The notes beneath the pieces were generated by a model. That model did no database searches and was not told the DNA's origin. It saw only the letters and a list, made by a program, of their open reading frames with translations. Below are positions 1-36,329 of a DNA stretch of 64,000 bases, piece after piece. Location: positions 32,922,001 through 32,986,000 of the forward strand of contig NC_073397.1 of the NCBI RefSeq assembly GCF_028641065.1, in the 5' to 3' direction. Position 1 is the stretch's first letter. The number at the start of each line of letters is the position of its first letter. Both the position numbers and the translations under genes were made by a program. Origin of the DNA: Leucoraja erinacea (Eukaryota).

Positions 1-165
1 GTAATGGTTGGAGAATTCTCTGCAGAAGGAGAAGGGAAGAGTAAGAAAATATCCAAGAAAGCTGCTGCTGTAGCCGTTTTGGAAGAATTGAAGAAACTGC
101 CACAACTCCCTACAGTAGAGAAAGTGAAACCACGCATAAAAAAGAAAACTAAATCAATAGTAAAG
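1..165 (+). CDS. STAU1: Staufen homolog 1 exon (5' truncated by the window), end of dsRBD3
   Basis: Translates [55 protein letters not shown], matching vertebrate STAU1; donor AAG|GTGCGT at 166. Confidence 0.95.
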
Positions 166-1966: not shown

Positions 1967-2807
1967 CAGGCATGATATTCTTCCGATTTAAATCAGGAAA
2001 CCGATTTATTTTATTTTCCTTACAATGCATCGATTTTTCGATTTTTTTTTTGTTCCCCGTTTTGACACAATTTAGTTGGCAAGATCATAAAATAAAAGGG
2101 TGAGGGAAGGAGAGTCAGTGGAGGTACCGGTCTGGAGGTCGGCAAGCTTGTGATTCATGATGGAAGTCAGAAAAGGGGGGGGGAGGGAGGGGAACGGCAT
2201 GGGCGGACAGAACACAAAGACGCTCCAAAGGCGATGATAGTGGGGGTTGGAGAGATGCGGGGCCCAACCTCCCGGGCAGCGGCTACCCCCTCCCCTTTCT
2301 GGTGAATTTCTGTTTATATTGAGAATTTTTCTTTTCATTGTTATTGGCAGAGGTTTTTAGTTTTCTACCTTCGTAGCGTTGTCGATGTGACATCAGTGTA
2401 TTGACAGTTAACTGTGCCTTGCAGTACTGTGCATAATTATGCCTTGAGACAGTACCTTTCCAAGGTGATATGTAGGTTTTACTTTTGTATTCTTTTGGCA
2501 TCTCTACAAATAGCTCATTTAGAAATTCAGGTAAAGATTTTTTTTAGCTGTATGAAGTCAATTAATTCATGAAATATTTATCTTTTGGTGGTTATTTTAC
2601 TGGTTGTGTGGTGGAAAATTTCTAAGCTTCTGTTATGTAAACTACCAGCAGAAAGCTTAGGAATTACTTTCAATTTATTGAAAAGGAGGAGCCCCCTGAA
2701 CCCCCACCGGGGGCGCTGCCCCTGGACCCCGCCAGGGACCTACCCGGCCTCTAGAACCCCCGGCCAATACTTCCTACTTTTTTTTCTGGAGGTGAATATC
2801 ATGCCTA
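1967..2807. mobile_element. Non-autonomous DNA transposon (hAT-like) in a STAU1 intron
   Basis: 14-bp TIRs CAGGCATGATATTC / GAATATCATGCCTA; GTTTAT directly flanks both ends (6-bp TSD); GC-rich subterminal GGGGCGCTGCCCCTGGACCCC. Confidence 0.65.
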
Positions 2808-5117: not shown

Positions 5118-5261
5118 CTACAGACCAGTCCAGAGTATGGGCAAGGAATGAATCCAATCAGCCGTCTAGCTCAAATTCAGCAAGCAAAAAAAGAAAAGGA
5201 GCCTGAATATACATTAATGGTAGAACGAGGCCTTCCTCGCCTCAGAGAGTTTGTTATGCGG
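5118..5261 (+). CDS. STAU1: STAU1 exon (dsRBD4 N-terminal part)
   Basis: Poly-T/AAG acceptor; [48 protein letters not shown]; donor GTGAGA; 144 nt, phase 0. Confidence 0.95.
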
Positions 5262-5348
5262 GTGAGAAATGTTACATAATTTATTTGATTTTCTATGGAT
5301 TCTGAAAGATACAATCCCAAATAATTTGAACTGTACTCTGTTATTTAG

Positions 5349-5495
5349 GTAAAAGTCGGCGGTCAAGTATCAGAGGGAATGGGCCCAAATAAGAAGGTTG
5401 CTAAACGAAATGCAGCTGAGAAAATGCTGGAGCTTTTAGGTTTTAAAGTTCCTCAGACTCAGCCACCTAAACCAGCTCTGAAAACCGATGAAAAG
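5349..5495 (+). CDS. STAU1: STAU1 exon (dsRBD4 C-terminal part)
   Basis: TTAG acceptor; [49 protein letters not shown]; donor GTAATA; 147 nt. Confidence 0.95.
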
Positions 5496-5593
5496 GTAAT
5501 ACCTTTTCTGCAATGCAGATAATAACAAATTAATTTTAATGATCTTTGAGTGTTACAAGGTCTGTTCTGAAGAATTTCTCGTATCCTTTTCAG

Positions 5594-5672
5594 CCAACTT
5601 TGAAAGAACCTGTCAAAGGAAGAAAAGTAACCTTTTTTGAACCCAATTCCTCTATGGAAGATACAGCAGCAG
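5594..5672 (+). CDS. STAU1: STAU1 exon containing the RKVTF (PP1-binding type) motif
   Basis: TTTTCAG acceptor; PTLKEPVKGRKVTFFEPNSSMEDTAA; donor GTTGGT; 79 nt, phase 1. Confidence 0.93.
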
Positions 5673-5842
5673 GTTGGTTTCAGGCAACTGAGATATGCTA
5701 TGTTCTAATATTATGCTTCGTCTATTCTTCTGCACTATTTCAGCTGACTTTTCCTACATGAATCAATACATTTTTTCCTTTCACCTATCTTTTAAACTCT
5801 ACGATTTGGCACATGTTGAAGAAAGTTAAGCAAATTAAGTTC

Positions 5843-6086
5843 CAGAGATTCACACAGAGAGTGGTGAATCTCTGGAACTCTCTGCCACAGAGGGTAGTTG
5901 AGGCCAGTTCATTGGCTATATTTAAGAGGGAGTTAGATGTGGCCCTTGTGGCTAAGGGGATCAGGGGGTATGGAGAGAAGGCAGGTACGGGATACTGAGT
6001 TGGATGATCAGCCATGATCATATTGAATGGCGGTGCAGGCTCGAAGGGCCGAATGGCCTACTCCTGCACCTAATTTCTATGTTTCT
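5843..6086 (+). mobile_element. CR1 LINE 3' fragment
   Basis: FTQRVVNLWNSLP...GIRGYG C-terminus and CR1 3' tail GGGCCGAATGGCCTACTCCTGCACC. Confidence 0.85.
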
Positions 6087-7132
6087 AAAAAGTCAAGCAA
6101 CCAGAATGATATTGTGTGAAGGTGTAGAATGAAGCCAACTAAATGTTTTCATTGAGAAATTAACTGCGCTATAATAATACAGTTAACCAAAGGCCCACCA
6201 CACCAACCTTCTGGTTCACTTGTGCCTCCTTTTCTCAACGTGGAGAATGTTTGTCATTTACACACAGCTGGCTAATATTTCTTTAAGCAGCAATCTTGAT
6301 TAACATCTCTATTTCACACTCTGCATTTTTCCTTTCATTGGCGTCCTTGTTATTGAATTGTTTTTCCGTTTCACTTTAAGATGCAGCCAAACTTTCTGTT
6401 TCCAAAATAAATAACCCAGTCTGCAAAATTGGTATTAGCTTTTGTTCTGGGGATAAAGATTTGAACATGTTTAGGAACGGCATCACTTAAGAAGTGAACT
6501 GCAACATGACGCTCATCTAAAACAGTTGTCACAGTGTCATAGAGTGATACAATGTGAAAACGGGCCCAACTTGCCCACACCGGCTAACATGTCCCAGCTA
6601 TACTAGTCCCACTGCTCGCGTTTGGTCCATATCCCTCCGAACCTGTCCTATCCATGTACCTGTTGAACTGTTTCTTAAATGTTGGGAAAGTCCCTGCCCC
6701 AACTACCTCCTCTGGCAGCTTCTTCCATGCACCCACCACCCTTCTTTTGAAAAATGACAAGTATCATGCAAATGTAAAAATTCTAATTCTAAGGTGTAGT
6801 TCTATTTCTTTGTAAAGTGTGCTGGCCCAGGTCATCTTTACATAACAAGAAGCCATCAGTGTCACAATGGAAAATGGTGGGAGAAGTAAAAATGAGGATG
6901 GATTTTCTTTAAAATAAAAATGGTAGCAATCAAAGGGGAAATGTTTGTTCCATTCAGCATAGTATGTTGTTTGTATATGAATGAGGAAAATGGGCTTGAT
7001 CAGACTATTACATCATCAATAAGAGTGCAACATTGCTAGTAAAGTGTATGTCGAATGATTCTGCACAATCAGTTCATGTGCTAAGGCAATTATTTTGATT
7101 TATTAAACATTGTCACTTGTATAATATTTCAG

Positions 7133-7464
7133 GTAAAGATGGGAGTATGCGCCTGGAAGATGAGTTTCGAATGCCTTATCCCAGCCACCAGCAACTGCCT
7201 GCTGGAATCCTACCCATGGTTCCTGAAGTAGCACAGGCTGTTGGAGTCAATCAGGGGCATCATACCAAAGATTTCAACAGGCCTGCGGTGAATCCGGCAA
7301 TGGCCACAATTACTGCAATGATTGCAAGAGAACTGCTGTATGGTGGGACATCCTTAACTGCTGAAACTGTATTGAAAAATAACCCTGCAGCCCGCAAGCC
7401 ACAAAACACCCTAACCAGACCTTCAGAACAGTTGGACTTTCTAGCTAATGTTCAAGCATTGCAG
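7133..7464 (+). CDS. STAU1: STAU1 exon (TBD/Staufen-swapping motif region)
   Basis: TTTCAG acceptor; [30 protein letters not shown]...[13 protein letters not shown]...[16 protein letters not shown]; donor GTATAA; 79+332 nt restores frame. Confidence 0.95.
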
Positions 7465-9401
7465 GTATAACAAATCTATCTTGAGCGTATGTTTCTAAGA
7501 AGTTAATATTTTTTTGTGTCGCGGAAATGTTACGAAATGCACTATAAACTTCACATCTTTGCATATGACGACAAGTACATCCAGCCAGTTGATGAGCTGT
7601 TTTCTGTGTTACTGTACATGGTGATTTTACTTGTATTATTCAAAATTATGTGGTTCTATTCTGGTACTAAATCTTCTAGGAAACAAATCTTGAACTTGAT
7701 CCATGCAAAATGAATCGGTGAATTCTCTGATTGTATTGCTACATTAATCAGATTTTGCAGGTCACTTATACGCTAAATAGTATTTTTGATTGGTATTGTG
7801 ATATGGCTTACCCAATAAATTAACCGTTATATATTTAAGTTCAAAGGTAATTTAAATGTAGACTTAAAGGGAAGTGAATGACATCTCATTCAAATGGGAG
7901 AGTTGATAGATGTGTAAGATGAGTTGAGATCTCACAGAATACTGGAGCAGATCCAGAAAGCCTATGGCTCAATATTTTAACATAAGAAATGGGAGCCTGT
8001 GTTTTCATTCTGCCATTGTGAGCTTGTTCTGCCGTGCATCGTGATCATAGCTGAACTCTGGTTCCGTTGTCTGCTTATCCCAACATCCCTTGATTAATTT
8101 CATACCCTGAAACCTATAGATCACTGTTTGAATGGACGATGACAGAGCCCCTACGGTCGGGGAAGAGAATCCCAAAGATTCCGGAGCCAATATCTAGCTT
8201 GCAATAACTTTCACATTTCAGTGAGATATCCTTTCAATCTCAACTCAAGAACACAGGCTAAATCTATTGGATATCATCCAGCAAATCCAACCTCCCTGGA
8301 ACCAGTCTATTGAATCTTCTTTGCATTCCCCCTGTGGATACATTCACTTTTAGGTCATGGGATCAAAACTAGTTACTTCAGTTGCACAATCACCAAGGTC
8401 CTACGTATTGCAATAAGATATCTTCTATATTCAAATCCTTCTGTTATGTGCCAATATATCATATACGTTCCTAATTACATGGTGTTCCTTCATATTTATT
8501 TTCAATAAACTTGTGTGCAAAAAGATAAAGGTCCCTTTGAACATAAGCATTACCCATTCTCTTTTTAAACATTGGTATTCTGCCTTTTTGTTATGCACTT
8601 GTGGAGAAAGTCACATTTTATTGGCCATATTCTCGCTATCTCAACTTGTCTATATATTTTTGAAGCCGCCTTACATTCCCTACCCCAGTCTCAATCCCGT
8701 CAAAATTTTGTGTCTACGGCAAATTCTGAAATGTGATATTTGGTCCCCTCAGCCCTTTCACCGATCTCGGCACCCATCTCTGCAGTATTTATTGAGGCTC
8801 AACCTGCCAATTGAAGTATCCATTTATTCCCACTCTGCTTTCTACCTGGTGACCAATTCTTAATCCTGTCAGTATAATGCCCCAAAAGTCCTAATTTAAT
8901 TGCAACATGCCATGTGAGTGACCATTTTGAAAGCTTTATGAAAACCCAAACACGCAATTCATTTTTTTCCCCTCCGTCCTAGTCTGATCCTCAAAGAACT
9001 CTTGGTGATTAATCAAAAGCTATTTTCGTTTCTCGACTTCCAGTTTATTGTATCCAATCTTGGATTCCAGCACGTTCTGTACTACTGATATGAGCCTAAT
9101 AGATCTGTGGTTCTGTTTCTCTCCCGTTTGATATTGTGGTGTCACATTTGCTCTTCTCTAATCCACAGGAACAATTCTACAATTTTTTAGACAAATACTA
9201 TTCCTATAGGCACCTTTTTCAAAACACTGTACATTATCATCTTGCCAATTCTGAGTTTTTTTTTGTCCTTAAACTAATATTACCTTCAATTCGTCAATTC
9301 TACCAGACCTTTGGTGTTCGCTCTTTTTCTGGCATGTCCTTTTGTTCTATGTGAATGGCCGTTTAACAAAAAAGTTATTTATGTGATTTGTTTCTTTCTA
9401 G

Positions 9402-9524
9402 GTTGAATATAAAGACTTTCCAAAAAACAACAAAAATGAGTATGTGTCATTGATAAATTGTTCATCCCAACCTCCTCTGATCAGCCATGGAATTGGAAAA
9501 GATGTTGAGTCTTGTCATGACATG
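9402..9524 (+). CDS. STAU1: STAU1 exon (dsRBD5)
   Basis: [41 protein letters not shown]; AG/GT boundaries; 123 nt. Confidence 0.95.
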
Positions 9525-9660
9525 GTAAAACAAAACTTCATAATTTTAAAACTTGTTCATAAAGTCTTGATGAAACGATTTGAAATTGCCGGTAATTGGT
9601 GGATTGGGATTCTAGAATAGTCTTACTAAAGTAGTTAACATTTATTTTCTCCCTTTCCAG

Positions 9661-17750: not shown

Positions 17751-17924
17751 TTTCCTTCGCTCCATAGATGCTGCTGCACCCGCTGAGTTTCTCCAGCTTT
17801 TTTGTGTAACCTCCTCTATTATAATTTGGGCAGCATCTCTGGAGAGACCACGTCACTGAGGGACGTCTCCGTGTCTATCACAGATAAGCCACACCCCTCA
17901 TGAATGGTAATGAGATGAGGCGGC

Positions 17925-18120
17925 GATGTAAGGGGACGGCACATGCGCGAGGGGGCCATATAAGGGTACAGCGCATGCGTTAGCGGGGCATATGAGGGTA
18001 CGGCGCATGCGTGAGGGGGGGGGGGGGGGGGGGGGGGGCTTATAAGGGTATGGCGCATGCGTGAGGGGGGCATATAAGCCGTTGCGCGGCGGCCATCGGT
18101 CTCTGTTGGTGGCGAGTGAG
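17925..18120 (+). promoter_or_regulatory. CpG-rich promoter plus exon 1 of the snoRNA host gene (most diverged copy, P0)
   Basis: Four NRF1-like GCGCATGCG sites, CArG-like CCATATAAGG, TATAA at 18073, YY1-like GCGGCCAT, pyrimidine start CTCT at 18101 (28 nt after TATA), donor GAG|GTGAGT at 18121. Confidence 0.7.
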
Positions 18121-18620: not shown

Positions 18621-19324
18621 TCTCTTCCCCGCCAATACTTCTGTTGCTTCATGCTGTTTGTGTTTTCTATGTTGATTTGTATTTAATAATTTTAAATGTA
18701 CGCTTTCATATTGTTTAGTTAACTTTGATCCGCGTAGTTACTGGTTGCCCAATGCGAGATATCGAAGCGTAATGTTTAGCTTTAGTGATAAAGTTAAACA
18801 TATGATATTTTTTAATATGCTATTATGCATTTTTATGTAATGTTGCACCTTGTCTGGACCTTGTGTCCGAAATAAAGTTAATTAAATTAAAGCGCGGAAT
18901 CAGACCCTTCGGCCCACGCCGACCCGCACACAAATACTAGGCCGCGACTGTCCATTTTTTTACCAAAGCCAATTAACCTACAAACCTGCACGCCTTTGGA
19001 GTGTGGGACGAAACCGAAGCACCCGGGGAAAAACCCACGCGTTCACGGGGAGAATGTACAAATTCCGTACAGACAGCAGCCGAGGACAGGATCAATTAAT
19101 GTCTTGCTGGACTTTGTGAATGGGCACATTTAGCTACTCGTGTTAGGTTACACTGTTAATGCTGGCTTTCTGCAGTGATTTCAATGAGGATTTTAAAAGT
19201 CAGTATTTGTCAATTCGCAGATAAACCACACCCCTCATGAATGGTAATGAGATGCGCATGTGGAGCAGTGGGTGCAGCCAGCTCAGGTACATTGCTAATT
19301 AATCCTTCAGCTAATCTTCTCAGT

Positions 19325-19408
19325 CTAGTAAATGATGTTGAAACTTTTTTCCCCGTCTTATCGATCATGCTGATTATGAGCAAATAAGCCAAATGTATCT
19401 GATGCTAG
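19325..19408 (+). ncRNA. SNORD12: Box C/D snoRNA, SNORD12/SNORD106 family, copy A
   Basis: Terminal stem CTAGTA/TGCTAG, C box ATGATGT, guide CTTTTTTCCCCGT before D' CTTA, C' ATGCTGA, D box CTGA; resembles remembered human SNORD12B/C. Confidence 0.85.
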
Positions 19409-19549
19409 CAAAAACGTTGGTTAAATCTGGCACTTTTTTGAGTACAAACTGACCCGAGTTTACTTTTCCAGGTGTGAAGAGCTCCGAGAAACAGCTGCAG
19501 ATCCAGGTAGGTGTTGGTACTTTTTTTGGGGGTGGGAATAGGTTAGTTA

Positions 19550-20343: not shown

Positions 20344-20520
20344 TGTATCGATTGAGCTCTACCACACTGCAGAACAGCACAAAAAGCTGCAGTAACTCAG
20401 CGGTACAGGCAGCATCTCTAGAGAGACGTTGCTCTGTCTGTGACTAGCACAGAAGCCACACCACTCATGAATGAGTAGTAATGAGGCGGATATATAAGAT
20501 TGCAGTGCATGTTTGATGGC

Positions 20521-20748
20521 CATATATGGTTATGGTGCATGCGTGTGGACTATATAAGGTCACGGCGCATGCGTGCGAACTATATAAGGTCACGGCGCAT
20601 GCGTGGGGGCTATATAAGGTCACGGCGCATGCGTGCGAACTATATAAGGTCACGGCGCATGCACAAGGGCCATATAAAGGTTCCTGTGCAGGCGTGAGGG
20701 CTATATAAGCCGCAGCGCAGCGGCCATTGGTAGATTGGTGATGAGGAG
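20521..20748 (+). promoter_or_regulatory. Duplicated promoter P1: 30-bp NRF1/TATA minisatellite plus mini exon 1
   Basis: Units of TATATAAGGTCACGGCGCATGCGTG, final TATATAAG, GCGGCCAT, donor GAG|GTGTGT; further copies at 23438-23753, 26596-26789, 29516-29769 and 32823-33106. Confidence 0.65.
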
Positions 20749-20779
20749 GTGTGTTGGTGCGGTCTCTCATCTTCTCTCT

Positions 20780-21070
20780 ATCCCTGCACTATCACCCTGC
20801 CTGCTCTCACTCTCTCCCTGCCTGCACTCACTCTCTCCCTGCCTGCACTCGCTTTCTCTCCCTGCCTGCTCTCTGTTTCTCCCACTCTTCACTCTCTCTC
20901 TCCCTGCCTGCACTCTCTCTCTCCCTGCCTGCTCTCTCTTTCTCCCTGCCTGCACTCTCTTTCTCCCACTCTTCACTCTCTCTCTCCCTGCCTGCACTCT
21001 CTCTCTCCCTGCCTGCACTCTCTCTCTCTCTCTCTCTCTCTCCCCCCTTCACACTCCCCGCACTCTCTCA
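20780..21070 (+). repeat. Pyrimidine-rich ~20-22 bp minisatellite (CTCTCCCTGCCTGCA) and (CT)n in intron 1 of each unit
   Basis: Directly visible; length varies between units; produces low-complexity spurious ORFs. Confidence 0.9.
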
Positions 21071-21309
21071 CTGCACTTCCACCACCGTAGTCTCTCACCA
21101 TCTCCCCCGGGCCCCGAGATCTGCCTCCCCTGGCACTGCCTGGCCCGCTGTAGCTTCATGCTGTTTATGGAGCAGAGGCAATCATCCACGATGATTTTGT
21201 TGATTGTATTTAATAAAAGACTATATTTGACTTTGAAATTGTTTATTTTTATTAATCCATGTCGTATTGCTTGCTCAAGTGAGATCAGTGGAATAATGTT
21301 TAGCTTTAA

Positions 21310-21940
21310 GGCCCTGTCCCACTTGCGTGTCCTTGGCACGCAAATCACGAGCCTTCCTCGTCGCGTTGACGAGCACGGGCATCATGTGGCCGCACGGGGC
21401 AGGTCCACTGAGAAGCGCGGAGGGGTATGGAGTCGTGCGCGGTATCGCGGCGCTCCAAAATTTTGTAGTGAACAAAATCTTTGCGCGCCACCGGCCTGTC
21501 GCATAACTGACGGCCAAAGTGGGGCAGGCCCAAGACCCTGGCACGACGCAACGTCTCGCCTCCAAAAGCAGCTGAATCAAGCAAACGATCGCCGTTGCGG
21601 TCGGTATCCGCCCCCACTTCTACTCCCAGAGCGGGGCCAAGAAAATTGAAGATAGACACAAAATGCTGGAGTAACTCAGCGGGACCGGCAGCATCTCTGG
21701 AGAGAAGAAGGAATAGATGACGTTCGGGTCAAGATCCTTCTTTCAAATTGAAGAAGTCTCGACCCGAAACATCACCCATTGCTTCTCTCCAGATATGCTG
21801 CCGGTCCCGCTGAGTTAGTCCTGCATTTTGTGTCTATCGTCAAATGACGTCACGCGCACCAGAAGGCTGTGCGGGTGCATGAAGTCGCGCGTGACCGTCG
21901 AGTAATTGGCGTGCCAAGGACACGCAAGTGGGACAGGGGC
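21310..21940. mobile_element. PIF/Harbinger-like MITE containing a nested palindromic repeat (21650-21838)
   Basis: ~32-bp TIRs GGCCCTGTCCCACTTGCGTGTCCTTGGCACGC / GCGTGCCAAGGACACGCAAGTGGGACAGGGGC, TAA at the left; copies at 24356-24986, 27386-28009, 30418-31048 and partial at ~33620-33865. Confidence 0.65.
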
Positions 21941-22347
21941 TCAAGAGACAAAGCGCGGAAACGGGCCCTTGGCCCACCGAGTCCATGCCGACCCGCACAT
22001 AAGTACTAGGTCGGGACAGTCACAATTTATTACCGAAGCCAATTGATCTACAAACCTAGACGTCTTTGTGTTATTTTGGTTTAGAAACGCAGTGCGGAAA
22101 CGGAGTTACCCAGCATTTTGTGCGTATCTTTTTATAAACATCAATGCTGGCTTTCTGCAGTGAGTGTTTTTCTGAACAGCAGTGGTTTAAAATTGTACAT
22201 CGTGATAGATTTAAAAATTGTGGTGAATTAAGTATGAATGTTGTCTTCCTGCATAGGGTGGATGCAGAAATGGATGTCACATGTGGAGCAGTGGGTGCAG
22301 CCAGCTCAGGTACATTGCTAATTAATCCTTCAGCTAATCTTCTCAGT

Positions 22348-22431
22348 GTAGTAAATGATGTTGAAACTTTTTTCCCCGTCTTATCGATAATGCTGATTAT
22401 GAGCAAATAAGGCAAATGTATCTGATGCTAG
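22348..22431 (+). ncRNA. SNORD12: SNORD12-family snoRNA, copy B (3 substitutions)
   Basis: Same boxes and guide; changes in the 5' stem, ATCGATA and TAAGGCA. Confidence 0.8.
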
Positions 22432-22569
22432 CAAAGACATTGGTTAAATGTGGCACCTTTTTGAGTACGAACTGACTCGAGTTTACTTTTCCAGGTGTGA
22501 AGAGCGAGGAATAGCTGCAGATCCAGGTAGGTGTTGGTACTTTTATGGGGGGTGGGAATAGGTTAGTTA

Positions 22570-23260
22570 CAGTGCCCTCTATAATGTTTGGGACAAAGAC
22601 CCATCATTTATTTATTTGCGTCTCTACTCCACAATTTTGGATTTGTAATAGAAAAAAAATCACATGTGGTTAAATTGCACGTTGTCAGATATTAACCATA
22701 TAACAATTACAGCACGGAAACAGGCCATCTCGGCCCTACAAGTCCATGCCGAACAATTATTTTCCCCTAGTCCCATCTACCTACACTCAGACCATAACCC
22801 TCCATTCCTTTCCCATCCATATACCTATCCAATTTATGTTTGAATGATAAAATCGAACCTGCCTCCACCACTTCCACTGGAAGCTCATTCCACACAGCTA
22901 CCACTCTCTGAGTAAAGAAGTTCCCCCTCATGTCACCCCTAAACTTCTGTTCCTTAATTCTGAAGTCGTGTCCTCTTGTTTGAATCTTCCCTACTCTCAA
23001 TGGGGAAAAGCTTGTCCACGTCAACTCTGTCTATCCCTCTCATCATTTTAAAGACCTCTATCAAAGTTTTATTCTTCTTTCTCAGTCTCATAATGGCTTC
23101 TTTGACTTTAAATTGGCACAACTTTGGCCCTCACTTTGATGCATCATTTTAATCACATGGTGATTTCTTTTTTCTCTTTCCTATTACAAGTCTCAAATTG
23201 TGGAGCAGAGGCAAGTAAACAAATCATGAGCCTTTGTCCCAAACATTATGGAGGGCACTG
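22570..23260 (-). mobile_element. Non-autonomous Tc1 element (type B interior) with nested CR1 fragment
   Basis: TIRs flanked by TA at both ends; CR1 TRGH...FFTQRVV remnant inside. Confidence 0.85.
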
Positions 23261-25393
23261 TATCGATCGAGCAGTACCACACTGCAGAACAGCACAAAAA
23301 GCTGCAGTAACTCAGCGGTACAGGCAGCAACTCTGGAGAGCCGTTGCTGTGTCTGTCTAGCACAGAAGCCACACCACTCATGAATGAGTAGTAATGAGGC
23401 GGATATATAAGATTGCAGTGCATGTTTGATGGCCATATATGGTTATGGCGCATGCGTGTGGATTATATAAGGTCACGGCGCATGCGTGTGAACTGTATAA
23501 GGTCACGGTGCATGCGTGGGGACTATATAAGGTCACGGCGCATGCGTGTGAACTGTATAAGGTCACGGTGCATGCGTGGGGACTATATAAGGTCACGGCG
23601 CATGCGTGGCGGCTATATAAGGTCACGGCGCATGCACAAGGGCCATATAAGGGGGCGGCGCATGCACAAGGGCCATATACGGGTTCCTGTGCAGGCGTGA
23701 GGCGGCTATATAAGCCGCAGCGCAGCGGCCATTGGTAGATTGGTGATGAGGAGGTGTGTTGGTGCGGTCTCTCATCTTCTCTCTATCCCTGCACTATTGC
23801 CATGCCTGCTCTCACTCTCTCCCTGCCTGCTCTCACTCTCTCCCTGCCTGCTCTCACTCTCTCCCTGCCTGCTCTCACTCTCTCCCTGCCTGCTCTCACT
23901 CTCTCCCTGCCTGCACTCACTCTCTCTCCCTGCCTGCTCTCTCTCTTCTCCCTGCCTGCACTCTCTTTCTCCCTGCCTGCACTCTCTCTCTCCCTGCCTG
24001 CACTCTCTTTCTCCCACTCTTCACTCTCTTTCTCCCTGCCTGCACTCTCTCTCTCCCTGCCTGCACTCTCTCTCTCTCTCTCTCTCTCCCCCCTTCACAC
24101 TCCCCGCACTCTCTCACTGCACTTCCACCACCCTAGTCTCTCACCATCTCCCCCGGGCCCCGAGATCTGCCTCCCCCGGCACTGCCTGGCCCGCTGTAGC
24201 TTCATGCTGTTTATGGAGCAGAGGCAATCATCCACGATGATTTTGTTGATTGTATTTAATAAAAGACTATATTTGACTTTGAAATTGTTTATTTTTATTA
24301 ATCCATGTGGTATTGCTTGCTCAAGTGAGATCAGTGGAATAATGTTTAGCTTTAAGGCCCTGTCCCACTTGCGTGTCCTTGGCACGCAAATCACGAGCCT
24401 TCCTCATCGCGTTGACGAGCACGGGCATCATGTGGCCGCACGAGGCAGGTCCACTGAGAAGCGCGGAGGGGTATGGAGTCGTGCGCGGTATCGCGGCGCT
24501 GCAAAATTTTGTAGTGAACAAAATCTTTGAGCGCCACCGGCCTGTCGCATAACTGACGGCCAAAGTGGGGCAGGCCCAAGACCCTGGCACGACGCAACGT
24601 CTCGCCTCCAAAAGCAGCTGAATCAAGCAAACGATCGCCGTTGCGGTCGGTATCCGCCCCCACTTCTACTCCCAGAGCGGGGCCAAGAAAATTGAAGATA
24701 GACACAAAATGCTGGAGTAACTCAGCGGGACCGGCAGCATCTCTGGAGAGAAGAAGGAATAGATGACGTTCGGGTCAAGATCCTTCTTTCAAATTGAAGA
24801 AGTCTCGACCCGAAACGTCACCCATTGCTTCTCTCCAGATATGCTGCCGGTCCCGCTGAGTTAGTCCTGCATTTTGTGTCTATCGTCAAATGACGTCACG
24901 CGCACCAGAAGGCTGTGCGGGTGCATGAAGTCGCGCGTGACCGTCGAGTAATTGGCGTGCCAAGGACACGCAAGTGGGACAGGGGCACAAGAGACAAAGC
25001 GCGGAAACGGGCCCTTGGCCCACCGAGTCCACGCCGACCCGCACATAAGTACTAGGTCAGGACAGTCACAATTTATTACCGAAGCCAATTGATCTACAAA
25101 CCTAGACGTCTTTGTGTTATTTTGGTTTAGAAACGCAGTGCGGAAACGGAGTTACCCAGCATTTTGTGCGTATCTTTTTATAAACATCAATGCTGGCTTT
25201 CTGCAGTGAGTGTTTTTCTGAACAGCAGTGGTTTAAAATTGTACATCGTGATAGATTTAAAAATTGTGGTGAATTAAGTATGAATGTTGTCTTCCTGCAT
25301 AGGGTGGATGCAGAAATGGATGTCACATGTGGAGCAGTGGGGGCAGGCAGCTCAGGTACATTGCTAATTAATCCTTCAGCTAATCTTCTCAGT

Positions 25394-25477
25394 CTAGTAA
25401 ATGATGTTGAAACTTTTTTCCCCGTCTTATCGATCATGCTGATTATGAGCAAATAAGCCAAATGTATCTGATGCTAG
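25394..25477 (+). ncRNA. SNORD12: SNORD12-family snoRNA, copy C
   Basis: Identical to copy A. Confidence 0.85.
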
Positions 25478-25618
25478 CAAAGACATTGGTTAAATGTGGC
25501 ACCTTTTTGAGAACGAACTGACTCGAGTTTACTTTTCCAGGTGTGAAGAGCTCCGAGAAACAGCTGCAGATCCAGGTAGGTGTTGGTACTTTTTTTGGGG
25601 GTGGGAATAAGTTAGTTA

Positions 25619-26416
25619 CAGTGCCCTCTATAATGTTTGGGACAAAGACCCATCATTTATTTATTTGCCTCTACTCCACAATTTTGGATTTGTAATAGAA
25701 AAATAATCACATGTGGTTAAATTGCGCATTGTCAGATATTAACCATATATAACCATATAACAATTACAGCACGGAAACAGGCCATCTCGGCCCTACAAGT
25801 CCATCCCCTAGTCCCATCTACCTACACTCAGACCATAACCCTCCATTCCTTTCCCATCCATATACCTATCCAATTTATTTTTGAATGATAAAATCGAACC
25901 TCCACCACTTCCACTTGGAAGCTCATTCCACACAGCTACCACTCTCTGAGTAAAGAAGTTCCCCCTCATGTTGCCCCAAAGCATAAGATAAAGATGGCTG
26001 CCACATAGGCCTGGCACAGCATCACCTAGCCAGGCCTGTATTGCAGCCATCTTTATCTTATGCTTTTTTTGAGTGTTTGGGAATTTTTATTTGCTGTGGA
26101 GGTCTTTCCTTGGCCTGCCAGTCCCTTTGCGATTAGTAAACTCGCCAGTGCTCTCTTTCTTCTTAATGATGTTCCAAACAGTTGATTTTGGTTAGACGAA
26201 GGTAGGGCTGATGTCTCTTTAACAGTTTTATTCTTCTTTCTCAGCCTTTCATTGGCACAACTTTGGCCCTCACTTTGATGCATAATTTTCTGCATAAATG
26301 TGCATTTTAACCACATGGTGATTTTTTTTCTCTTTCCTATTACAAATCTCAAATTGTGGAGCAGAGGCAAGTAAACAAATCATGGGCCTTTGTCCCAAAC
26401 ATTATGGAGGGCACTG
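25619..26416 (-). mobile_element. Tc1 element, type A
   Basis: As 19550-20343. Confidence 0.85.
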
Positions 26417-28416
26417 TGTATCGATTGAGCTCTACCACACTGCAGAACAGCACAAAAAGCTGCAGTAACTCAGCGGTACAGGCAGCATCTCTAGAGACGT
26501 TGCTCTGTCTGTGACTAGCACAGAAGCCACACCACTCATGAATGAGTAGTAATGAGGCGGATATATAAGATTGCAGTGCATGTTTGATGTCCATATATGG
26601 TTATGGCGCATGTGTGTGGACTATATAAGGTCACGGCGCATGCGTGCGAACTATATAAGGTCACGGCGCTTGCGTGGGGGCTATATAAGGTCACGGCGCA
26701 TGCACAAGGGCCATATACGGGTTCCTGTGCAGGCGTGAGGGCTATATAAGCCGCAGCGCAGCGGCCATTGGTAGATTGGTGATGAGGAGGTGTGTTGGTG
26801 CGGTCTCTCATCTTCTCTCTATCCCTGCACTATCGCCCTGCCTGCACTCACTCTCTCCCTGCCTGCACTCACTCTCTCCCTGCCTGCATTCGCTCTCTCT
26901 CTCTCCCAGCCTGCACTCTCTTTCTCCCTGCCTGCACTCTCTTTCTCCCACTCTTCACTCTCTTTCTCCCTGCCTGCACTCTCTCTCCCTGCCTGCACTC
27001 TCTCTCTCCCTGCCTGCACTCTCTCTCTCCCAGCCTGCACTCTCTTTCTCTCACTCTCTTTCTCCCACTCTTCACTCTCTCTCTCCCTGCCTGCACTCTC
27101 TCTCTCTCTCTCTCTCTCCCCCCTTCACACTCCCCGCACTCTCTCACTGCACTTCCACCACCGTAGTCTCTCACCATCTCCCCCGGGCCCCGAGATCTGC
27201 CTCCCCCGGCACTGCCTGGCCCGCTGTAGCTTCATGCTGTTTATGGAGCAGAGGCAATCATCCGCGGTGATTTTGTTGATTGTATTTAATAAAAGACTAT
27301 ATTTGACTTTGAAATTGTTTATTTTTATTAATCCATGTGGTGTTGCTTGCTCAAGTGAGATCAGTGGAATAATGTTTAGCTTTAAGGCCCTGTCCCACTT
27401 GCGTGTCCTTGGCACGCAAATCACGAGCCTTCCTCATCGCGTTGACGAGCACGGGCATCATGTGGCCGCACGGGGCAGGTCCACTGAGAAGCGCGGAGGG
27501 GTATGGAGTCGTGCGCGGTATCGCGGCGCTCCAAAATTTTGTGGTGAACAAAATCTTTGCGCGCCACCGGCCTGTCGCATAACTGACGTCCAAAGTGGGG
27601 CAGGCCCAAGACCCTGGCACGACGCAACGTCTCGCCTCCAAAAGCAGCTGAATCAAGCAAACGATCGCCGTTGCGGTCGGTATCCGCCCCCACTTCTACT
27701 CCCAGAGCGGGGCCAAGAAAATTGAAGATAGACACAAAATGCTGGAGTAACTCAGCGGGACCGGCAGCATCTCTGGAGAGAAGAAGGAATAGATGACGTT
27801 CGGGTCAAGATCCTTCTTTCACATTGAAGAAGTCTCGACCCGAAACGTCACCCAGTGATCCAGATATGCTGCCGGTCCCGCTGAGTTAGTCCTGCATTTT
27901 GTGTCTATCGTCAAATGACGTCACGCGCACCAGAAGGCTGTGCGGGTGCATGAAGTCGCGCGTGACCGTCGAGTAATTGGCGTGCCAAGGACACGCAAGT
28001 GGGACGGGCACAAGAGACAAAGCGCGGAAACGGGCCCTTGGCCCACCGAGTCCACGCCGACCCGCACATAAGTACTAGGTCGGGATAGTCACAATTTATT
28101 ACCGAAGCCAATTGATCTACAAACCTAGACGTCTTTGTGTTATTTTGGTTTAGAAACACAGTGCAGAAACGGAGTTACCCAGCATTTTGTGCGTATCTTT
28201 TTATAAACATCAATGCTGGCTTTCTGCAGTGAGTGTTTTTCTGAACAGCAGTGGTTTAAAATTGTACATCGTGATAGATTTAAAAATTGTGGTGAATTAA
28301 GTATGAATGTTGTCTTCCTGCATAGGGTGGATGCAGAAATGGATGTCACCTGTGGAGCAGTGGGGGCAGGCAGCTCAGGTACATTGCTAATTAATCCTTC
28401 AGCTAATCTTCTCAGT

Positions 28417-28500
28417 CTAGTAAATGATGTTGAAACTTTTTTCCCCGTCTTATCGATCATGCTGATTATGAGCAAATAAGCCAAATGTATCTGATGCTAG
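28417..28500 (+). ncRNA. SNORD12: SNORD12-family snoRNA, copy D
   Basis: Identical to copy A. Confidence 0.85.
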
Positions 28501-28637
28501 CAAAGACATTGGTTAAATCTGGCACCTTTTTGAGTACGAACTGACTCGAGTTTACTTTTCCAGGTGTGAAGAGCGAGGAATAGCTGCAGAGCCAGGTAGG
28601 TGTTGGTACTTTTATGGGGGTGGGAATAGGTTAGTTA

Positions 28638-29338
28638 CAGTGCCCTCTATAATGTTTGGGACAAAGACCCATCATTTATTTATTTCCCTCTCTACTCCAC
28701 AATTTTGGATTTGTAATAGAAAGAAAATCACACGTGGTTAAATTGCACATTGTCAGATATTAACCATATATAACCATATAACAATTACAGCACGGAAACA
28801 GGCCATCTCGGCCCTACAAGTCCATGCCGAACAATTATTTTCCCCTAGTCCCATCTACCTACACTCAGACTATAACCCTCCATTCCTTTCCCATCCATAT
28901 ACCTATCCAATTTATTTTTGAATGATAAATTCGAACCTTCCTCCACCACGTCCACTGGAAGCTCATTCCACACAGCTACCACTCTCTGAGTAAAGAAGTT
29001 CCCCCTCATGTCACCCCTAAACTTCTGTTCCTTAATTCTGAAGTCGTGTCCTCTTGTTTGAATCTTCCCTACTCTCAATGGGGAAAAGCTTGTCCACGTC
29101 AACTCTGTCTATCCCTCTCATCATTTTAAAGACCTCTATCAAAGTTTTATTCTTCTTTCTCAGTCTCATAATGGCTTCTTTGACTTTAAATTGGCACAAC
29201 TTTGGCCCTCACTTTGATGCATCATTTTAATCACATGGTGATTTCTTTTTTCTCTTTCCTATTACAAATCTCAAATTGTGGAGCAGAGGCAAGTAAACAA
29301 ATCATGAGCCTTTGTCCCAAACATTATGGAGGGCACTG
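28638..29338 (-). mobile_element. Tc1 element, type B
   Basis: As 22570-23260. Confidence 0.85.
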
Positions 29339-30099
29339 TATCGATCGAGCAGTACCACACTGCAGAACAGCACAAAAAGCTGCAGTAACTCAGCGGTACA
29401 GGCAGCAACTCTGGAGAGACGTTGCTGTGTCTGTCTAGCACAGAAGCCACACCACTCATGAATGAGTAGTAATGAGGCGGATATATAAGATTGCAGTGCA
29501 TGTTTGATGGCCATATATGGTTATGGCGCATGCGTGTGGACTATATAAGGTCACGGCGCATGCGTGGGGACTATATAAGGTCACGGCGCATGCGTGGGGA
29601 CTATATAAGGTCACGGCGCATGCATGGGGACTATAAGGTCACGGCGCATGCACAAGGGCCATATAAGGGGGCGGCGCATGCACAAGGGCCATATAAAGGT
29701 TCCTGCGCGGGCGTGAGACGGCTATATAAGCCGCAGCGCAGCGGCCATTGGTAGATTGGTGATGAGGAGGTGTGTTGGTGCGGTCTCATCTTCTCTCTTT
29801 CCCTGCACTATCGCCCTGCCTGCTCTCACTCTCTCTCCCTGCCTGCACTCGCTCTCTCCCTGCCTGCACTTGCTCTCTCTCCCTGCCTGTACTCACTCTC
29901 TCTCCCTGCCTGCTCTCTCTTTCTCCCTGCCTGCACTCTCTTTCTCCCACTCTTCACTCTCTTTCTCCCTGCCTGCTCTCTCTTTCTCCCTGCCTGCACT
30001 CTCTTTCTCCCACTCTTCACTCTCTTTCTCCCTGCCTGCTCTCTTTCTCCCTGCCTGCACTCTCTTTCTCCCACTCTTCACTCTCTCTCTCCCTGCCTG

Positions 30100-30144
<45 letters not shown>

Positions 30145-31731
30145 TCTCTCCCCCCTTCACACTCCCCGCACTCTCTCACTGCACTTCCACCACCGTAGTC
30201 TCTCACCATCTTCCCCGGGCCCCGAGATCTGCCTCCCCCGGCACTGCCTGGCCCGCTGTAGCTTCATGCTGTTTATGGAGCAGAGGCAATCATCCACGAT
30301 GATTTTGTTGATTGTATTTAATAAAAGGCTATATTTGACTTTGAAATTGTTTATTTTTATTAATCCATGTGGTATTGCTTGCTCAAGTGAGATCAGTGGA
30401 ATAATGTTTAGCTTTAAGGCCCTGTCCCACTTGCGTGTCCTTGGCACGCAAATCACGGGCCTTCCTCATCGCGTTGACGAGCACGGGCATCATGTGGCCG
30501 CACGGGGCAGGTCCACTGAGAAGCGCGGAGGGGTATGGAGTCGTGCGCGGTATCGCGGCGCTCCAAAATTTTGTAGTGAACAAAATCTTTGCGCGCCACC
30601 GGCCTGTCGCATAACTGACGGCCAAAGTGGGGCAGGCCCAAGACCCTGGCACGACGCAACGTCTCGCCTCCAAAAGCAGCTGAATCAAGCAAACGATCGC
30701 CGTTGCGGTCGGTATCCGCCCCCACTTCTACTCCCAGAGCGGGGCCAAGAAAATTGAAGATAGACACAAAATGCTGGAGTAACTCAGCGGGACCGGCAGC
30801 ATCTCTGGAGAGAAGAAGGAATAGATGACGTTCGGGTCAAGATCCTTCTTTCACATTGAAGAAGTCTCGACCCGAAACGTCACCCATTGCTTCTCTCCAG
30901 ATATGCTGCCGGTCCCGCTGAGTTAGTCCTGCATTTTGTGTCTATCGTCAAATGACGTCACGCGCACCAGAAGGCTGTGCGGGTGCATGAAGTCGCGCGT
31001 GACCGTCGAGTAATTGGCGTGCCAAGGACACGCAAGTGGGACAGGGGCACAAGAGACAAAGCGCGGAAACGGGCCCTTGGCCCACCGTGTCCACGCCGAC
31101 CCGCACATAAGTACTAGGTCGGGACAGTCACAATTTATTACCGAAGCCAATTGATCTACAAACCTAGACGTCTTTGTGTTATTTTGGTTTAGAAACACAG
31201 TGCGGAAACGGAGTTACCCAGCATTTTGTGCGTATCTTTTTATAAACATCAATGTGCTTAACTACAAAATTCATCTTTGCCACATAACGGCTAGAGTGAA
31301 ACTTTGGTGAGATTTAAATAGTAGATTGCGAAGCTCATGTCAAATGGTTGAGAGTTGTCATTTGGTTTCATCTTCAATCAACTGTGGCAGATGTTTGGAT
31401 TATTTGGTTACTGATTCTAGAGACTTTGGAGATTGATGAACAATGGAGCAGATTGATGTCTTGCTGGACTTTGGGAATGGGCACATTTAGCCACTCGTGT
31501 TAGGCTACACTGTTAATGCTGGCTTTCTGCAGTGAGTGTTTTCAATGAGTTTTTTCTGAACAGCAGTGGTTTAAAATTGTACATCGTGATAGATTTAAAA
31601 ATTGTGGTGAATTAAGTATGAATGTTGTCTTCCTGCACAGGGTGGATGCAGAAATGGATGTCACATGTGGAGCAGTGGGTGCAGCCAGCTCAGGTACATT
31701 GCTAATTAATCCTTCAGCTAATCTTCTCAGT

Positions 31732-31815
31732 CTAGTAAATGATGTTGAAACTTTTTTCCCCGTCTTATCGATCATGCTGATTATGAGCAAATAAGCCAAA
31801 TGTATCTGATGCTAG
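31732..31815 (+). ncRNA. SNORD12: SNORD12-family snoRNA, copy E
   Basis: Identical to copy A. Confidence 0.85.
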
Positions 31816-31953
31816 CAAAGACATTGGTTAAATCTGGCACCTTTTTGAGTACGAACTGACTCAAGTTTATTTTTTCAGGCGTGAAGAGCGAGGAATAGCT
31901 GCAGATCCAGGTAGGTGTTGGTACTTTTATGGGGGGTGGGAATAGGTTAGTTA

Positions 31954-32645
31954 CAGTGCCCTCTATAATGTTTGGGTCAAAGACCCATCATTTATTTATT
32001 TGCCTCTCTACTCCACAATTTTGGATTTGTAATGGAAAAAAAATCACATGTGGTTAAATTGCACATTGTCAGATATTAACCATATATAACCATATAACAA
32101 TTACAGCACGGAAACAGGCCATCTCGGCCCTACAAGTCCATGCCGAACAATTATTTTCCCCTAGTCCCATCTACTTACACTCAGACCACAACCCTCCATT
32201 CCTTTCCCATCCATATACCTATCCAATTTATTTTTGAATGATAAAATCGAACCTGCCTCCACCACTTCCACTCATTCCGCACAGCTACCACTCTCTGAGT
32301 AAAGAAGTTCCCCCTCATGTTACCCCTAAACTTCTGTTCCTTAATTCTGAAGTCATGTCCTCTTGTTTGAATCTTCCCTACTCTCAATGGGAAAAGCTTG
32401 TCCACGTCAAGTCTGTCTATCCCTCTCGTCATTTTAAAGACCTCTATCAAAGTTTTATTCTTCTTTCTCAGTCTCATAATGGCTTCTTTGACTTTCATTG
32501 GCACAACTTTGGCCCTCACTTTGATGCATCATTTTAACCACATGGTGATTTCTTTTTTCTCTTTCCTATTACAAATCTCAAATTGTGGAGCAGAGGCAAG
32601 TAAACAAATCACGGGCCTTTGTCCCAAACATTATGGAGGGCACTG
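31954..32645 (-). mobile_element. Tc1 element, type B
   Basis: TIRs; MRAKVVPMKVKEAIMRLRKKNKT transposase start fused to CR1 sequence. Confidence 0.85.
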
Positions 32646-34200
32646 TATCGATCGAGCAGTACCACACTGCAGAACAGCACAAAAAGCTGCAGTAACTCAG
32701 CGGTACAGGCAGCAACTCTGGAGAGACGTTGCTGTGTCTGTCTAGCACAGAAGCCACACCACTCATGAATGAGTAGTAATGAGGCGGATATATGATTGCA
32801 GTGCATGTTTGATGGCCATATATAGTTATGGCGCATGCGTGTGGACTATATAAGGTCACGGCGCATGCGTGTGAACTATATAAGGTCACGGCGCATGCGT
32901 GGGGACTATATAAGGTCACGGCGCATGCGTGGGGACTATATAAGGTCACGGCGCATGCACAAGGGCCATATAAGGGGGCGGCGCATGCACAAGGGCCATA
33001 TAAGGGGGCGGCGCATGCACAAGGGCCATATACGGGTTCCTGTGCAGGCGTGAGGCGGCTATATAAGCCGCAGCGCAGCGGCCATTGGTAGATTGGTGAT
33101 GAGGAGGTGTGTTGGTGCGGTCTCTCATCTTCTCTCTATTTCTCTCTCCCTGCACTATCACCCTGCCTGCTCTCACTCTCTCGCCCTGCCTGCACTCACT
33201 CTCTTTCTCCCTGCCTGCACTCTCTTTCTCCCTGCCTGCACTCTTTCTCCCTGCCTGCACTCTCTTTCTCCCTGCCTGCACTCTTTCTCCCTGCCTGCAC
33301 TCTCTCTCTCCCCCTGCCTGCACTCTCTCTCTCTCCCCCCTTCACACTCCCCGCACTCTCTCACTGCACTTCCACCACCGTAGTTTCTCACCATCTCCCC
33401 CGGGCCCAGAGATCTGCCTCCCCTGGCACTGCCTGGCCCGCTGTAGCTTCATGCTGTTTATGGAGCAGAGGCAATCATCCACGATGATTTTGTAAAAAGC
33501 CATTTTGTTGATTGTATTTAATAAAAGACTATTTTGACTTTGAAATTGTTTTTTTTTTTTTAATCCACATGGTATTGCTTGCTCAAGTGAGATCAGTGGA
33601 ATAATGTTTAGCTTTAAGTCCAACTTGCTGTCCTTGGCACACGCAAATTACGAGATAGCGTTGACGAGCACGGGCATCATGTGGCCGCGCGGGGCCGGTC
33701 CCACTGAGAAGCGCGGAGGGGTATGGAGTCGTGTGCGGTATCGCGGTGCTCTGAAATTTTGTAGTGAACAAAATCTTTGTGCGCCACCGGCCTCTCGTGT
33801 AACTGACGGTCAAAGTGGGACAGGCCCAAGACCCTGGCGCGACGCAACGTCTCACCTCCAAAAGCATTCCCAAAGTCCACCAAGACATCAATCTGTTCCA
33901 TTGTGAGTGAAACTTTGGTGAAATTTAAATAGTTGATTGCGAAGTTCATGTCAAATGGTTGGGGGTTGTCATTTGGTTTCCTGCTGGCTTCCTGCAGTGA
34001 TTTCAATCAGTGTTTTTTCTGAACAGCAGTGGTTTAAAATTGTACATTGTGGCGGATTTAAAAAAAAATCAAGTAGTCAATTAAGTATGAATGTTGTCTT
34101 CCTGCACAGGGTGGATGCAGAAATGGATGGCACATGTGGAGCAGTGGGTGCAGGCAGCTCAGGTACGTTGATAACTAATCCGTCGGCTAATTTTCTTATT

Positions 34201-34284
34201 CTAGTAAATGATGTTGAAACTTTTTTCCCCGTCTTATCGATCATGCTGATGTTGAGCAAATAAGCCAAATGTATCTGATGCTAG
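34201..34284 (+). ncRNA. SNORD12: SNORD12-family snoRNA, copy F
   Basis: Boxes and guide intact; GCTGATGTTGAG variant after the C' box. Confidence 0.85.
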
Positions 34285-34418
34285 CAAAGACATTGGTTAA
34301 ATCTGGCACCTTTTTGTGTACGAACTGACCCGAGTTTACTTTTCCAGGAGTGAAGAGCTGCGAGGAACAGCTGCAGATCCAGGTAGGTTCTTTTTTGGGG
34401 ATGGGAATAGGTTCCTTA

Positions 34419-34820: not shown

Positions 34821-34976
34821 CGTACATTGTGAAGGATTTAAAATTCAAGTTGTAAATTAAGTAAGAATGTTGTCTTCCTGCACAGGGTGGATGCAGAAAT
34901 GGATGGCACATGTGGAGCAGTGGGTGCAGGCAGCTCAGGTACGTTGATAATTAATCCGTCAGCTAATCTTCTTATT

Positions 34977-35060
34977 CTAGTAAATGATGTTGAAACTTTT
35001 TTCCCCGTCTTATCGATCATGCTGATTATGAGCAAATAAGCCAAATGTATCTGATGCTAG
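34977..35060 (+). ncRNA. SNORD12: SNORD12-family snoRNA, copy G
   Basis: Identical to copy A; 63 nt upstream of the 3' splice site. Confidence 0.85.
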
Positions 35061-36329
35061 CAAAGACATTGGTTAAATCTGGCACCTTTTTGTGTACAAA
35101 CTGACCCGAGTTTACTTTTCCAGGTGTGAAGAGCGAGGAATAGCTGCAGATCCAGGTAGGTGTTGGTACTTTTTTGGGGGTGGGGAGATGGGTTCCTTAT
35201 TTCGAGCTCTCATCACTTATTCCAACCAGGCAATTATCTCCACTTTACTAGTAGTTCACAATTTTGTTGTTTTATTGTCCAATTATAAATATTATTTTGA
35301 AATTCTAGTGATAAATAAATTGTGTATTTCCTTCCACTACCGTATGGCCTGCTCTACTTCTCCAGTAATTCATTTTTTGAGCATGTCACGAGTAGACACC
35401 ATTTTAGTGATTACATGATACTTCTTTCCCAAGTCCAAAGTTTAAGAGGAGATCGACAGAATTGTAATACAGACAACATGTTGATAGCTATTTGAGATAG
35501 TCACCAATTATCTGAAGGTGGGTCCTGACCTGAAGCGTCGCCTCTCCATATTCTCCAAGGATCCTGCCTGTCTCGCTGAGTTACTCCAGCTCCTTGTGTC
35601 CTGGAAATGCCTCAAATGGTTTAAAGGCCATGGTTTGAGTTGCTGCATGATTTTGATATATTGGTCTGAGATTCAGGAATGTTTGCGGGGTGCATGATGG
35701 GGTACCAGACACATCCAAGGTGAATGAGAGAACAGTGGTCCCCTTCTGTTGTTTTTGAATGATGACCATCAAATTGAATGACTATTCTAATTATCTGTGT
35801 ATTTTTGTTCTGAACCTTTTTCTTTTGTTTACAGAGTTGAAGCTTTCAAGAGACAATGAATTTGCGTTTGATCTCGCAAGATGTACATTTCAAATAAATG
35901 TTTTGCTTTCCTAAATTCTTTGAATATGACTTCAAATTATTGCTGGAGTGTCAAATGTCTGCATTTCAATTTACGTACTTGGTCATGCTTGCAAGTATGG
36001 CGAGGTACAGGCACCATGAACGTTTTACTTGCAGCAGTGTCACAGGCAGCCTTGGGCAATACATCCCACCCACTGTCTTGGATAATTTTTGTAAGCACAA
36101 CTGGAAAAGTAGTACAAAGTGGTGCACAGATGTCTGATGCTGAAATGGGGGATTGAGCAGGTCATAAGTGATGGGAGCAGAATTCAATTATGGCTGATCT
36201 ATCTCTCCCTCCTAACCCCATTCTCCTGCCTTCTCCCCATAACCCCTGACCAATAGCGTGTTCAAGAACCTGATGTAGGAATGTAGATATTCATGGTGTG
36301 TGACTATGGGATTCTGCCACCTTGGTGAC

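Follow-up and report, generated by a model that had tools for sequence, protein, structure and literature searches.

Within a 64-kb window of Leucoraja erinacea DNA (contig NC_073397.1, positions 32,922,001 to 32,986,000; the window is the whole stretch of 64,000 nucleotides analysed, and all coordinates below are its own), six arrays of a short tandem unit, P0 to P5, occupy the expected promoter position of an expressed gene, as an original prediction made from the sequence had proposed. This gene is a host of SNORD12, a small nucleolar RNA (snoRNA). We put the chances somewhat above even that P0 to P5 are tandem alternative promoters of this one gene, driven by weak NRF1 sites that act additively.

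Results

The six arrays lie where they had been placed and have the unit numbers first given for them, four in P0 and five, eight, four, six and seven in P1 to P5. Counting as a unit any match to a 22-base core with at most four substitutions, we find 34 of them and nothing that near the core elsewhere in the window; the exact sequence GCGCATGCG stands in 18 of the 34. P0 (17924..18070; all arrays are on the + strand) consists of four units of a 32-bp type, each with a one-mismatch NRF1-like site and none with a consensus site for the TATA-binding protein (TBP). P1 (20490..20709, A type, five units and two decayed end units) closes with a terminal TATATAAG at 20702, and P2 (23403..23714, B type, eight units), P3 (26561..26750, A type, four), P4 (29481..29730, B type, six) and P5 (32786..33067, seven) have their terminal TATA boxes at 23707, 26743, 29723 and 33060. 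An additional decayed unit is found at either end of each array from P1 to P5, and these end units score as unit-like (35-105 of 5000 shuffles are as good). The interval originally assigned to the promoters, 20521-33106, takes in P1-P5 and leaves out P0, at 17.9-18.1 kb; likewise, the 30-bp period ascribed to all copies holds in P1-P5 (with one spacing of 28), but in P0 the spacings are 32, 32 and 50. The arrays have the form of a promoter variable-number tandem repeat (VNTR), with head-to-tail units of 10-60 bp whose number is unequal between copies.

Unit number has evolved faster than the flanks, as had been suggested: P1 and P3 have five and four units at 2.1% divergence, P2 and P4 eight and six at 2.3%. 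Internal duplications are visible among the unit types of the arrays. Owing to its palindromic units, the array has a strong single-strand fold (z -6.1), which is compatible with slippage. In P2 (23701-23718) and P5 (33054-33071), a 6-bp inverted repeat surrounds the terminal TATA box and closes a hairpin in the predicted fold. A conserved CTCATGAAT element sits immediately 5' of every array (17897-17916; 20464-20490 and its copies), and P0 has a TAATGARAT match in addition. The background has an observed-to-expected CpG ratio of 0.34-0.50, and all six promoters reach 1.06-1.13.

The unit had been described as carrying an NRF1 motif, and this stands in a weakened form: the full consensus GCGCNTGCGC occurs in none of the units, but NRF1-like sites are plausible, with 29 of the 34 one mismatch away from the consensus and the remaining five two mismatches away. 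From P0 to P5 the promoters have 4, 4, 6, 3, 5 and 7 one-mismatch sites. Matches to GCGCNTGCGC with at most one mismatch number 59 over both strands against 3.4 expected, a count that none of 100 shuffles reaches. PMC10810270 gives dissociation constants of 1.27, 1.81 and 0.66 uM for NRF1 site variants and 0.31 uM for the consensus (Table 2). The site types found here correspond to those variants (the two types of one-mismatch site to those at 1.27 and 1.81 uM), with flanks that differ from the measured oligonucleotides, and by the measured values the one-mismatch type is 2-6-fold weaker in in vitro binding. Judged from their sequence, such sites may lie in the regime where site number could matter. 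The second element of the unit, CTATATAAGG, fits the TBP-selected consensus STATATAAGS (PMC5580651) in 17 of the 30 units of P1-P5, in all five of their terminal boxes and nowhere in P0, and STATATAAGS has no further match within the window.

Other factors had also been assigned to the array, and these assignments find no support. The CArG box of SRF, CC(A/T)6GG, is present in only nine units, the common form of the element being the TBP-type site. A nuclear-receptor half-site, AGGTCA, occurs in 21 of the 30 P1-P5 units and in none of the four P0 units. The YY1 core GCCATNTT is unmatched at all six copies of the supposedly YY1-like GCGGCCAT, where only GCCAT agrees with the consensus. Nor does a 30-bp spacing keep sites in helical phase, as it amounts to 2.86 turns of 10.5 bp and rotates each unit by about -51 degrees relative to the one before, so that sites three to four units apart face opposite sides of the helix. 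We regard an inducible promoter driven by SRF or a nuclear receptor, which that list of motifs implies, as very improbable: every promoter does have at least one true CArG box and AGGTCA is frequent in P1-P5, but 25 of 34 units lack CArG, P0 lacks AGGTCA, the only cores common to P0 and P1-P5 are ATATAAGG and GCGCATGC, and snoRNA hosts fall in the translation-machinery class of promoters (PMC6954239).

Each array ends in the order foreseen, with TATATAAG (CATATAAG in P0), then GCGGCCAT, then a GT splice donor that lies 47 nt after the start of the TATA box in P1-P5 and 50 nt after it in P0; terminal TATA, GCGGCCAT and donor are retained in every copy. The core promoter and predicted exon 1 of P0 span 18071..18120 (+), with CATATAAG, GCGGCCAT, a TCT-like start at C18101, placed by its spacing from the TATA box, and the donor GTGAGT at 18121. 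The C lies within a 6/7 match to the TCT motif (YC+1TYTYY), 30 bases past the terminal box. In P1 the predicted exon 1 is 17 nt long (20732..20748, +), with a YR (pyrimidine-purine) start expected 30 nt past the TATA box and the donor GTGTGT at 20749; P2-P5 have the same layout, with predicted starts at 23737, 26773, 29753 and 33090 (+). Perfect TCT-motif matches are found further downstream, in the pyrimidine tract of all six promoters. A long first exon beginning in this tract is disfavoured by a read depth of 0-0.2 over 33110-33270, although filtering may have removed low-complexity reads from that stretch. A derivation of the core promoter from a decayed unit was rejected for everything but the TATA box, since 3795 and 3436 of 5000 shuffles score as well.

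By sequence, P0 looks TATA-poor with a TCT-like start, and P1-P5 look like TATA/YR promoters. A stronger version of this contrast would have the copies active with their promoter class switched, from TATA-poor/TCT in P0 to TATA/YR in P1-P5, and the 30-bp unit a self-contained module of TBP site and weak NRF1 site, possibly starting transcription on the next unit; we consider this version doubtful.

The host gene is defined by seven SNORD12 copies on the + strand that exceed the Rfam gathering score (RF00581, gathering 43): 19322..19411 (53.3 bits), 22346..22434 (47.8 bits, the lowest of the seven), 25391..25480, 28414..28503, 31729..31818, 34198..34287 (58.1 bits) and 34974..35063 (57.2 bits). 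Each is intronic, 44 nt from the 5' splice site and 69 nt from the 3' splice site. SNORD12 is an rRNA-modifying guide RNA of a housekeeping host gene. The second copy differs from the fifth by three substitutions in and beside the snoRNA; it has substitutions near its internal box and in its second guide region. The exons, all on the + strand, are short. Exon 2 (53 nt, 22257..22309) has copies at 25303, 28326, 31641, 34110 and 34886; exon 3 (32 or 35 nt, 22495..22526) has copies at 19472, 25541, 28564, 31879, 34348 and 35124; and exon 4 (43 nt, 35677..35719) is weakly covered, at a depth of 8-16 in RNA run X22. Exons 2 and 4 have AG/GT ends. A single terminal exon (35835..35910, its 3' end approximate), with AATAAA at 35893, is common to all promoters. 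The last intron (115 nt) contains C-box/D-box-like motifs at 35759-35813, about 21 nt from the acceptor, which have no Rfam match at E up to 5; depth in X22 suggests that this intron is partially retained.

Reads from two RNA runs (X22, X24) and two DNA runs (X1, and X12, which carries another organism label) were placed on 31500-36300, that is, from the exon module of P4 to the terminal exon, with P0-P4 outside. At 35839 in the terminal exon, X22 has 133 reads on the + strand, from 57 starts, and 3 on the - strand. Its + depth covers exons 2 and 3 (three copies of which lie in the placed stretch) and the terminal exon, with 0-0.1 in unique intron bins. The expected strand, the depth of the terminal exon and the near-empty introns together indicate that a spliced, polyadenylated host transcript is made. 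Every read of both RNA runs differs from the window at 35839, so the haplotypes of these runs are not that of the window. In X22 the two distal copies of exon 2 have an implied combined depth of 37 and the array-type exon 2 one of about 20-30, a rough comparison from bin means in which 54 nt was used for the 53-nt exon; the depth on array-type exon 2 argues that some transcripts begin upstream of P5.

The same reads bear on whether the units themselves could initiate. If every internal TATA were usable, the array would be a nest of core promoters whose starts exclude one another and form a ladder; unit number would then set how many starts there are, and not how many activator sites. The register is exact for this, the 30-bp period putting each box's start (+31/+32) on the TA of the next box; 17 internal boxes fit the TBP-selected consensus; and in X22 the + depth of the array bin is 3.05, compared with 0.1 for the intron bins that follow. 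That depth, however, amounts to only about 490 letters, leaves 32793 and 32910 uncovered, barely extends to the donor side (0.7) and is not seen in X24. In P0 the period is of the 32-bp type and no unit holds a consensus TATA, and what follows the terminal TATA cannot be recognised as a unit (3795 of 5000 shuffles score as well). We judge such nesting unlikely.

Several observations weigh against six active promoters tuned by additive NRF1 sites. The high CpG ratio is no proof of an open promoter, since a young insert in intron 1 resembling a miniature inverted-repeat transposable element (MITE) is equally CpG-rich, at 1.06. Single changes in an NRF1 site reduce reporter output about 3-fold (PMC10810270). 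The TBP-consensus count is nearly constant across P1-P5 (5, 4, 4, 4, 5) despite their varying unit count. P1-P5 have TA at the TATA-predicted start, without a TCT match there, and their donor GTGTGT is weaker than the canonical GTGAGT of P0; in zebrafish, snoRNA output is tracked better by YC than by YR initiation (PMC6954239). Array-type exon 2 can be reached from P0 as well. At 33075, in the P5 core, X22 has one + read against six - reads, which reflect either divergent transcription or a library artefact, and X24 has zero depth over 32788-33109, that is, over P5. Among the splice joints listed, in which mobile-element reads dominate, none linked an exon 1 of P1-P5 to exon 2.

A rival reading has only P0, or a single copy, firing: P1-P5 would be silent intronic passengers, their unit number neutral minisatellite drift, and the extra SNORD12 would come through read-through splicing alone. 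The missing exon-1 joints, the empty P5 in X24, the canonical donor and TCT-like start owned by P0, and unit-level changes that include CpG transitions at several CpG positions all speak for it. Yet a 17-nt exon is probably too short for read placement, so that a blank is expected either way, and the reads were placed outside P0, so that they leave its use equally unsupported. Moreover, P1-P5 hold consensus TBP sites that P0 lacks, the core is intact in all five, and the normal acceptor has been lost in the module directly after P0. We think silent passengers a possibility to be taken seriously, but on the whole improbable, and continue to favour tandem alternative promoters.

The arrays are part of a larger amplification, a tandem unit of about 3 kb with promoter, exons 1-3 and one SNORD12 intron, from which the terminal exon is excluded. 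The units run A-B-A-B and then P5. Divergence is 2.1% between units 1 and 3, 2.3% between units 2 and 4 and 4.6-4.9% between A and B; the pairing of 1 with 3 and 2 with 4 indicates that an A-B dimer was duplicated. The last unit is 6.4-9.3% divergent from the others. P0 is about 70% alike to the P1-P5 copies, and from the sequence it is the older.

The DNA reads fit a real, locus-specific multi-copy array. In X1, contig depths, which are rough within-run ratios and not copy numbers, are 6.5-7.7 times single copy for the snoRNA, 4.1-4.8 for exon 2, 2.5-3.4 for the promoter flanks and 15-18 for the array; the flank values alone also fit three copies. Short-read contigs break inside the array. 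An assembly artefact, in which A-B-A-B would be two haplotypes set end to end and there would be three P1-type promoters instead of five, can draw on the pairing of units 1 and 3 and of units 2 and 4 and on those low flank depths. However, the paired units differ by 2.1-2.3%, as against 5 of 1063 positions at which X1 departs from the window where the sequence is unique, and the snoRNA and exon 2 depths correspond to 7 and 4-5 copies. We find an artefact hardly credible, and even then the array and at least three copies would be real. X12, which differs from the window at 13 of 392 and 15 of 642 positions, has a 173-nt array piece 89% alike to P5, with flanks at 1.4-1.7 and the snoRNA at 5.1-5.4 times single copy; the minisatellite is present in X12 too, and the amplification looks smaller there. 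A dispersed mobile or viral repeat was rejected as the source of the array: mobile-element bins reach a summed depth of 1e5-1e6, and the array has 15-18 times the single-copy depth in X1 and 0.8 times in X12. The mobile elements resemble those known from skates and rays. Exact-pattern scans gave no match to the unit in viral contigs and none to the snoRNA core or a two-unit pattern in metagenome contigs.

Other features of the amplified region concern its history. In pairwise alignments, a stretch at 19208..19287 (+) joins about 47 nt resembling the upstream flank of P0 to the 3' half of exon 2. The junction is a short shared sequence that includes CATG, with a possible new acceptor directly before it, and the stretch is probably what a deletion has left of an older promoter copy. 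A second variable minisatellite, CT-rich with a 21-bp period, sits just 3' of the exon-1 donor in each P1-type unit (intron 1, + strand; Tandem Repeats Finder, 9.5-14 copies; 20795-21028, 23803-24076, 26836-27106, 29814-30112 and 33134-33333), and the long open frames across it look low-complexity by eye. The MITE-like insert, with terminal inverted repeats of about 30 bp (21309..21940, no strand assigned), is present in intron 1 of units 1-4 and partially after P5; it is CpG-rich, with a piece like a short interspersed nuclear element within. Transitions affect 2 of 110 CpG positions among its four copies; for reading methylation from CpG decay, the segments outside it offer 12-30 CpG positions each, and the site definition inflates the CpG-transition rate. 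AATAAA occurs in intron 1 of each P1-type unit (21212, 24258, 27288, 30320, 33520) and not at the matching place after P0; by sequence, it could permit short intronic polyadenylation.

Upstream on the same strand lie the 3' exons of STAU1 (1..9617, +), recognised by Pfam dsrm and Staufen_C matches in 4 of 122 + frames of 1-17900. The best PDB matches are to human Staufen 1 (E 1e-17 to 1e-25), with no STAU2 chain among the matches for comparison. ZNFX1 was not found there, with no Pfam match in 117 minus-strand frames of at least 38 amino acids in 1-17900. A SNORD12 host adjoining STAU1 (human ZFAS1 is likewise close to STAU1), with ZNFX1 not found, is probably the ZFAS1 orthologue, next to another neighbour than in human. 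At 58170-58565 (+), in the sole frame scanned in 36-64 kb, Pfam finds a somatomedin-B domain exon, accompanied by a signal-peptide-like stretch; this gene, at 58.2 kb, we take to be probably SBSPON-like.

Discussion

We propose that the array serves as the proximal promoter of the ZFAS1-like SNORD12 host gene, in which every unit combines a sub-optimal NRF1 site and a TATA-type element. Lying 5' of the last TATA box, several such weak sites would have additive effects and hold the CpG-rich promoter open, and that last box would fix the start about 30 nt downstream, giving a first exon of about 17-21 nt. Palindromic units could be gained and lost through slippage or unequal exchange, and unequal crossing-over would have amplified the 3-kb unit of promoter, exons 1-3 and SNORD12, excluding the last exon. 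Transcripts would then splice through the downstream modules to the one terminal exon, SNORD12 being freed from each intron. The likely effect would be more SNORD12 templates, with unit number altering the output per copy just modestly.

Six paralogous promoters that share their downstream exons and differ in the number of activator sites (3 to 7) and in core type make the locus a natural setting for asking if the effects of weak homotypic NRF1 sites are additive, and if snoRNA release depends on the type of initiation, a question raised in PMC6954239. Copy number of the 3-kb unit seems to differ between organisms as well (depth about 1.5-fold in X12, 2.5-3.4 in X1). If the copies are active and class-switched, unit number and the copy number of the 3-kb unit would set, at two levels and in a fast-evolving way, the dose of SNORD12 and one rRNA methylation; the locus would be an RNA polymerase II (Pol II) counterpart of ribosomal DNA (rDNA) spacer promoters, and would test in nature whether snoRNAs can be released after YR initiation. 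If P1-P5 are silent, the locus would be a commonplace case of a housekeeping gene duplicated locally. In the largely open-access literature covered, we found no description of such a promoter, array or locus architecture.

In its layout the locus would work like a promoter VNTR nested within a small tandem array of promoter-bearing units; a regulatory VNTR is defined by allelic polymorphism together with an effect on function. Promoter minisatellites are known from other genes. The 30-bp repeat of MAOA and the 28-bp repeat of TYMS lie in promoters. In DDX3Y, tandem amplification of the minisatellite MSY2 created a new start site (PMC3039753). Like these, the array described here consists of tandem units in a proximal promoter. 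Unlike them, its unit is made of a consensus TBP site and an activator site, and its length is so far seen to differ among paralogous copies in cis and not among alleles. The arrays of SNORD115 and SNORD116 repeat modules of exon and snoRNA within one host transcript that starts from a distant upstream promoter, whereas each module here brings its own. The macrosatellite DXZ4 is likewise a GC-rich tandem of about 3-kb units with a promoter (PMC3218863), but the roughly five units here lie inside one gene, with a snoRNA intron in each. rDNA spacer promoters (PMC5765358) share with this locus duplicated promoters and variable short repeats in the service of ribosome synthesis; they are RNA polymerase I elements with demonstrated enhancer function, whereas ours would serve a Pol II host gene, and homology of repeat and core promoter is here undetected beyond the TATA box. 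Another parallel is human ZFAS1, a head-to-head neighbour of ZNFX1 whose consecutive introns hold three snoRNAs of the SNORD12 family (PMC13238724). The locus here resembles it in having SNORD12-family snoRNAs in consecutive introns between short exons, with STAU1 nearby; human ZFAS1 is a non-coding host, and ours, with exons of 17-53 nt, may be one too. Where the human gene has three copies and a ZNFX1 partner, the skate locus has no such partner in the 17.9 kb upstream, and it has seven near-identical SNORD12 copies, six promoters and, in each of these, a minisatellite.

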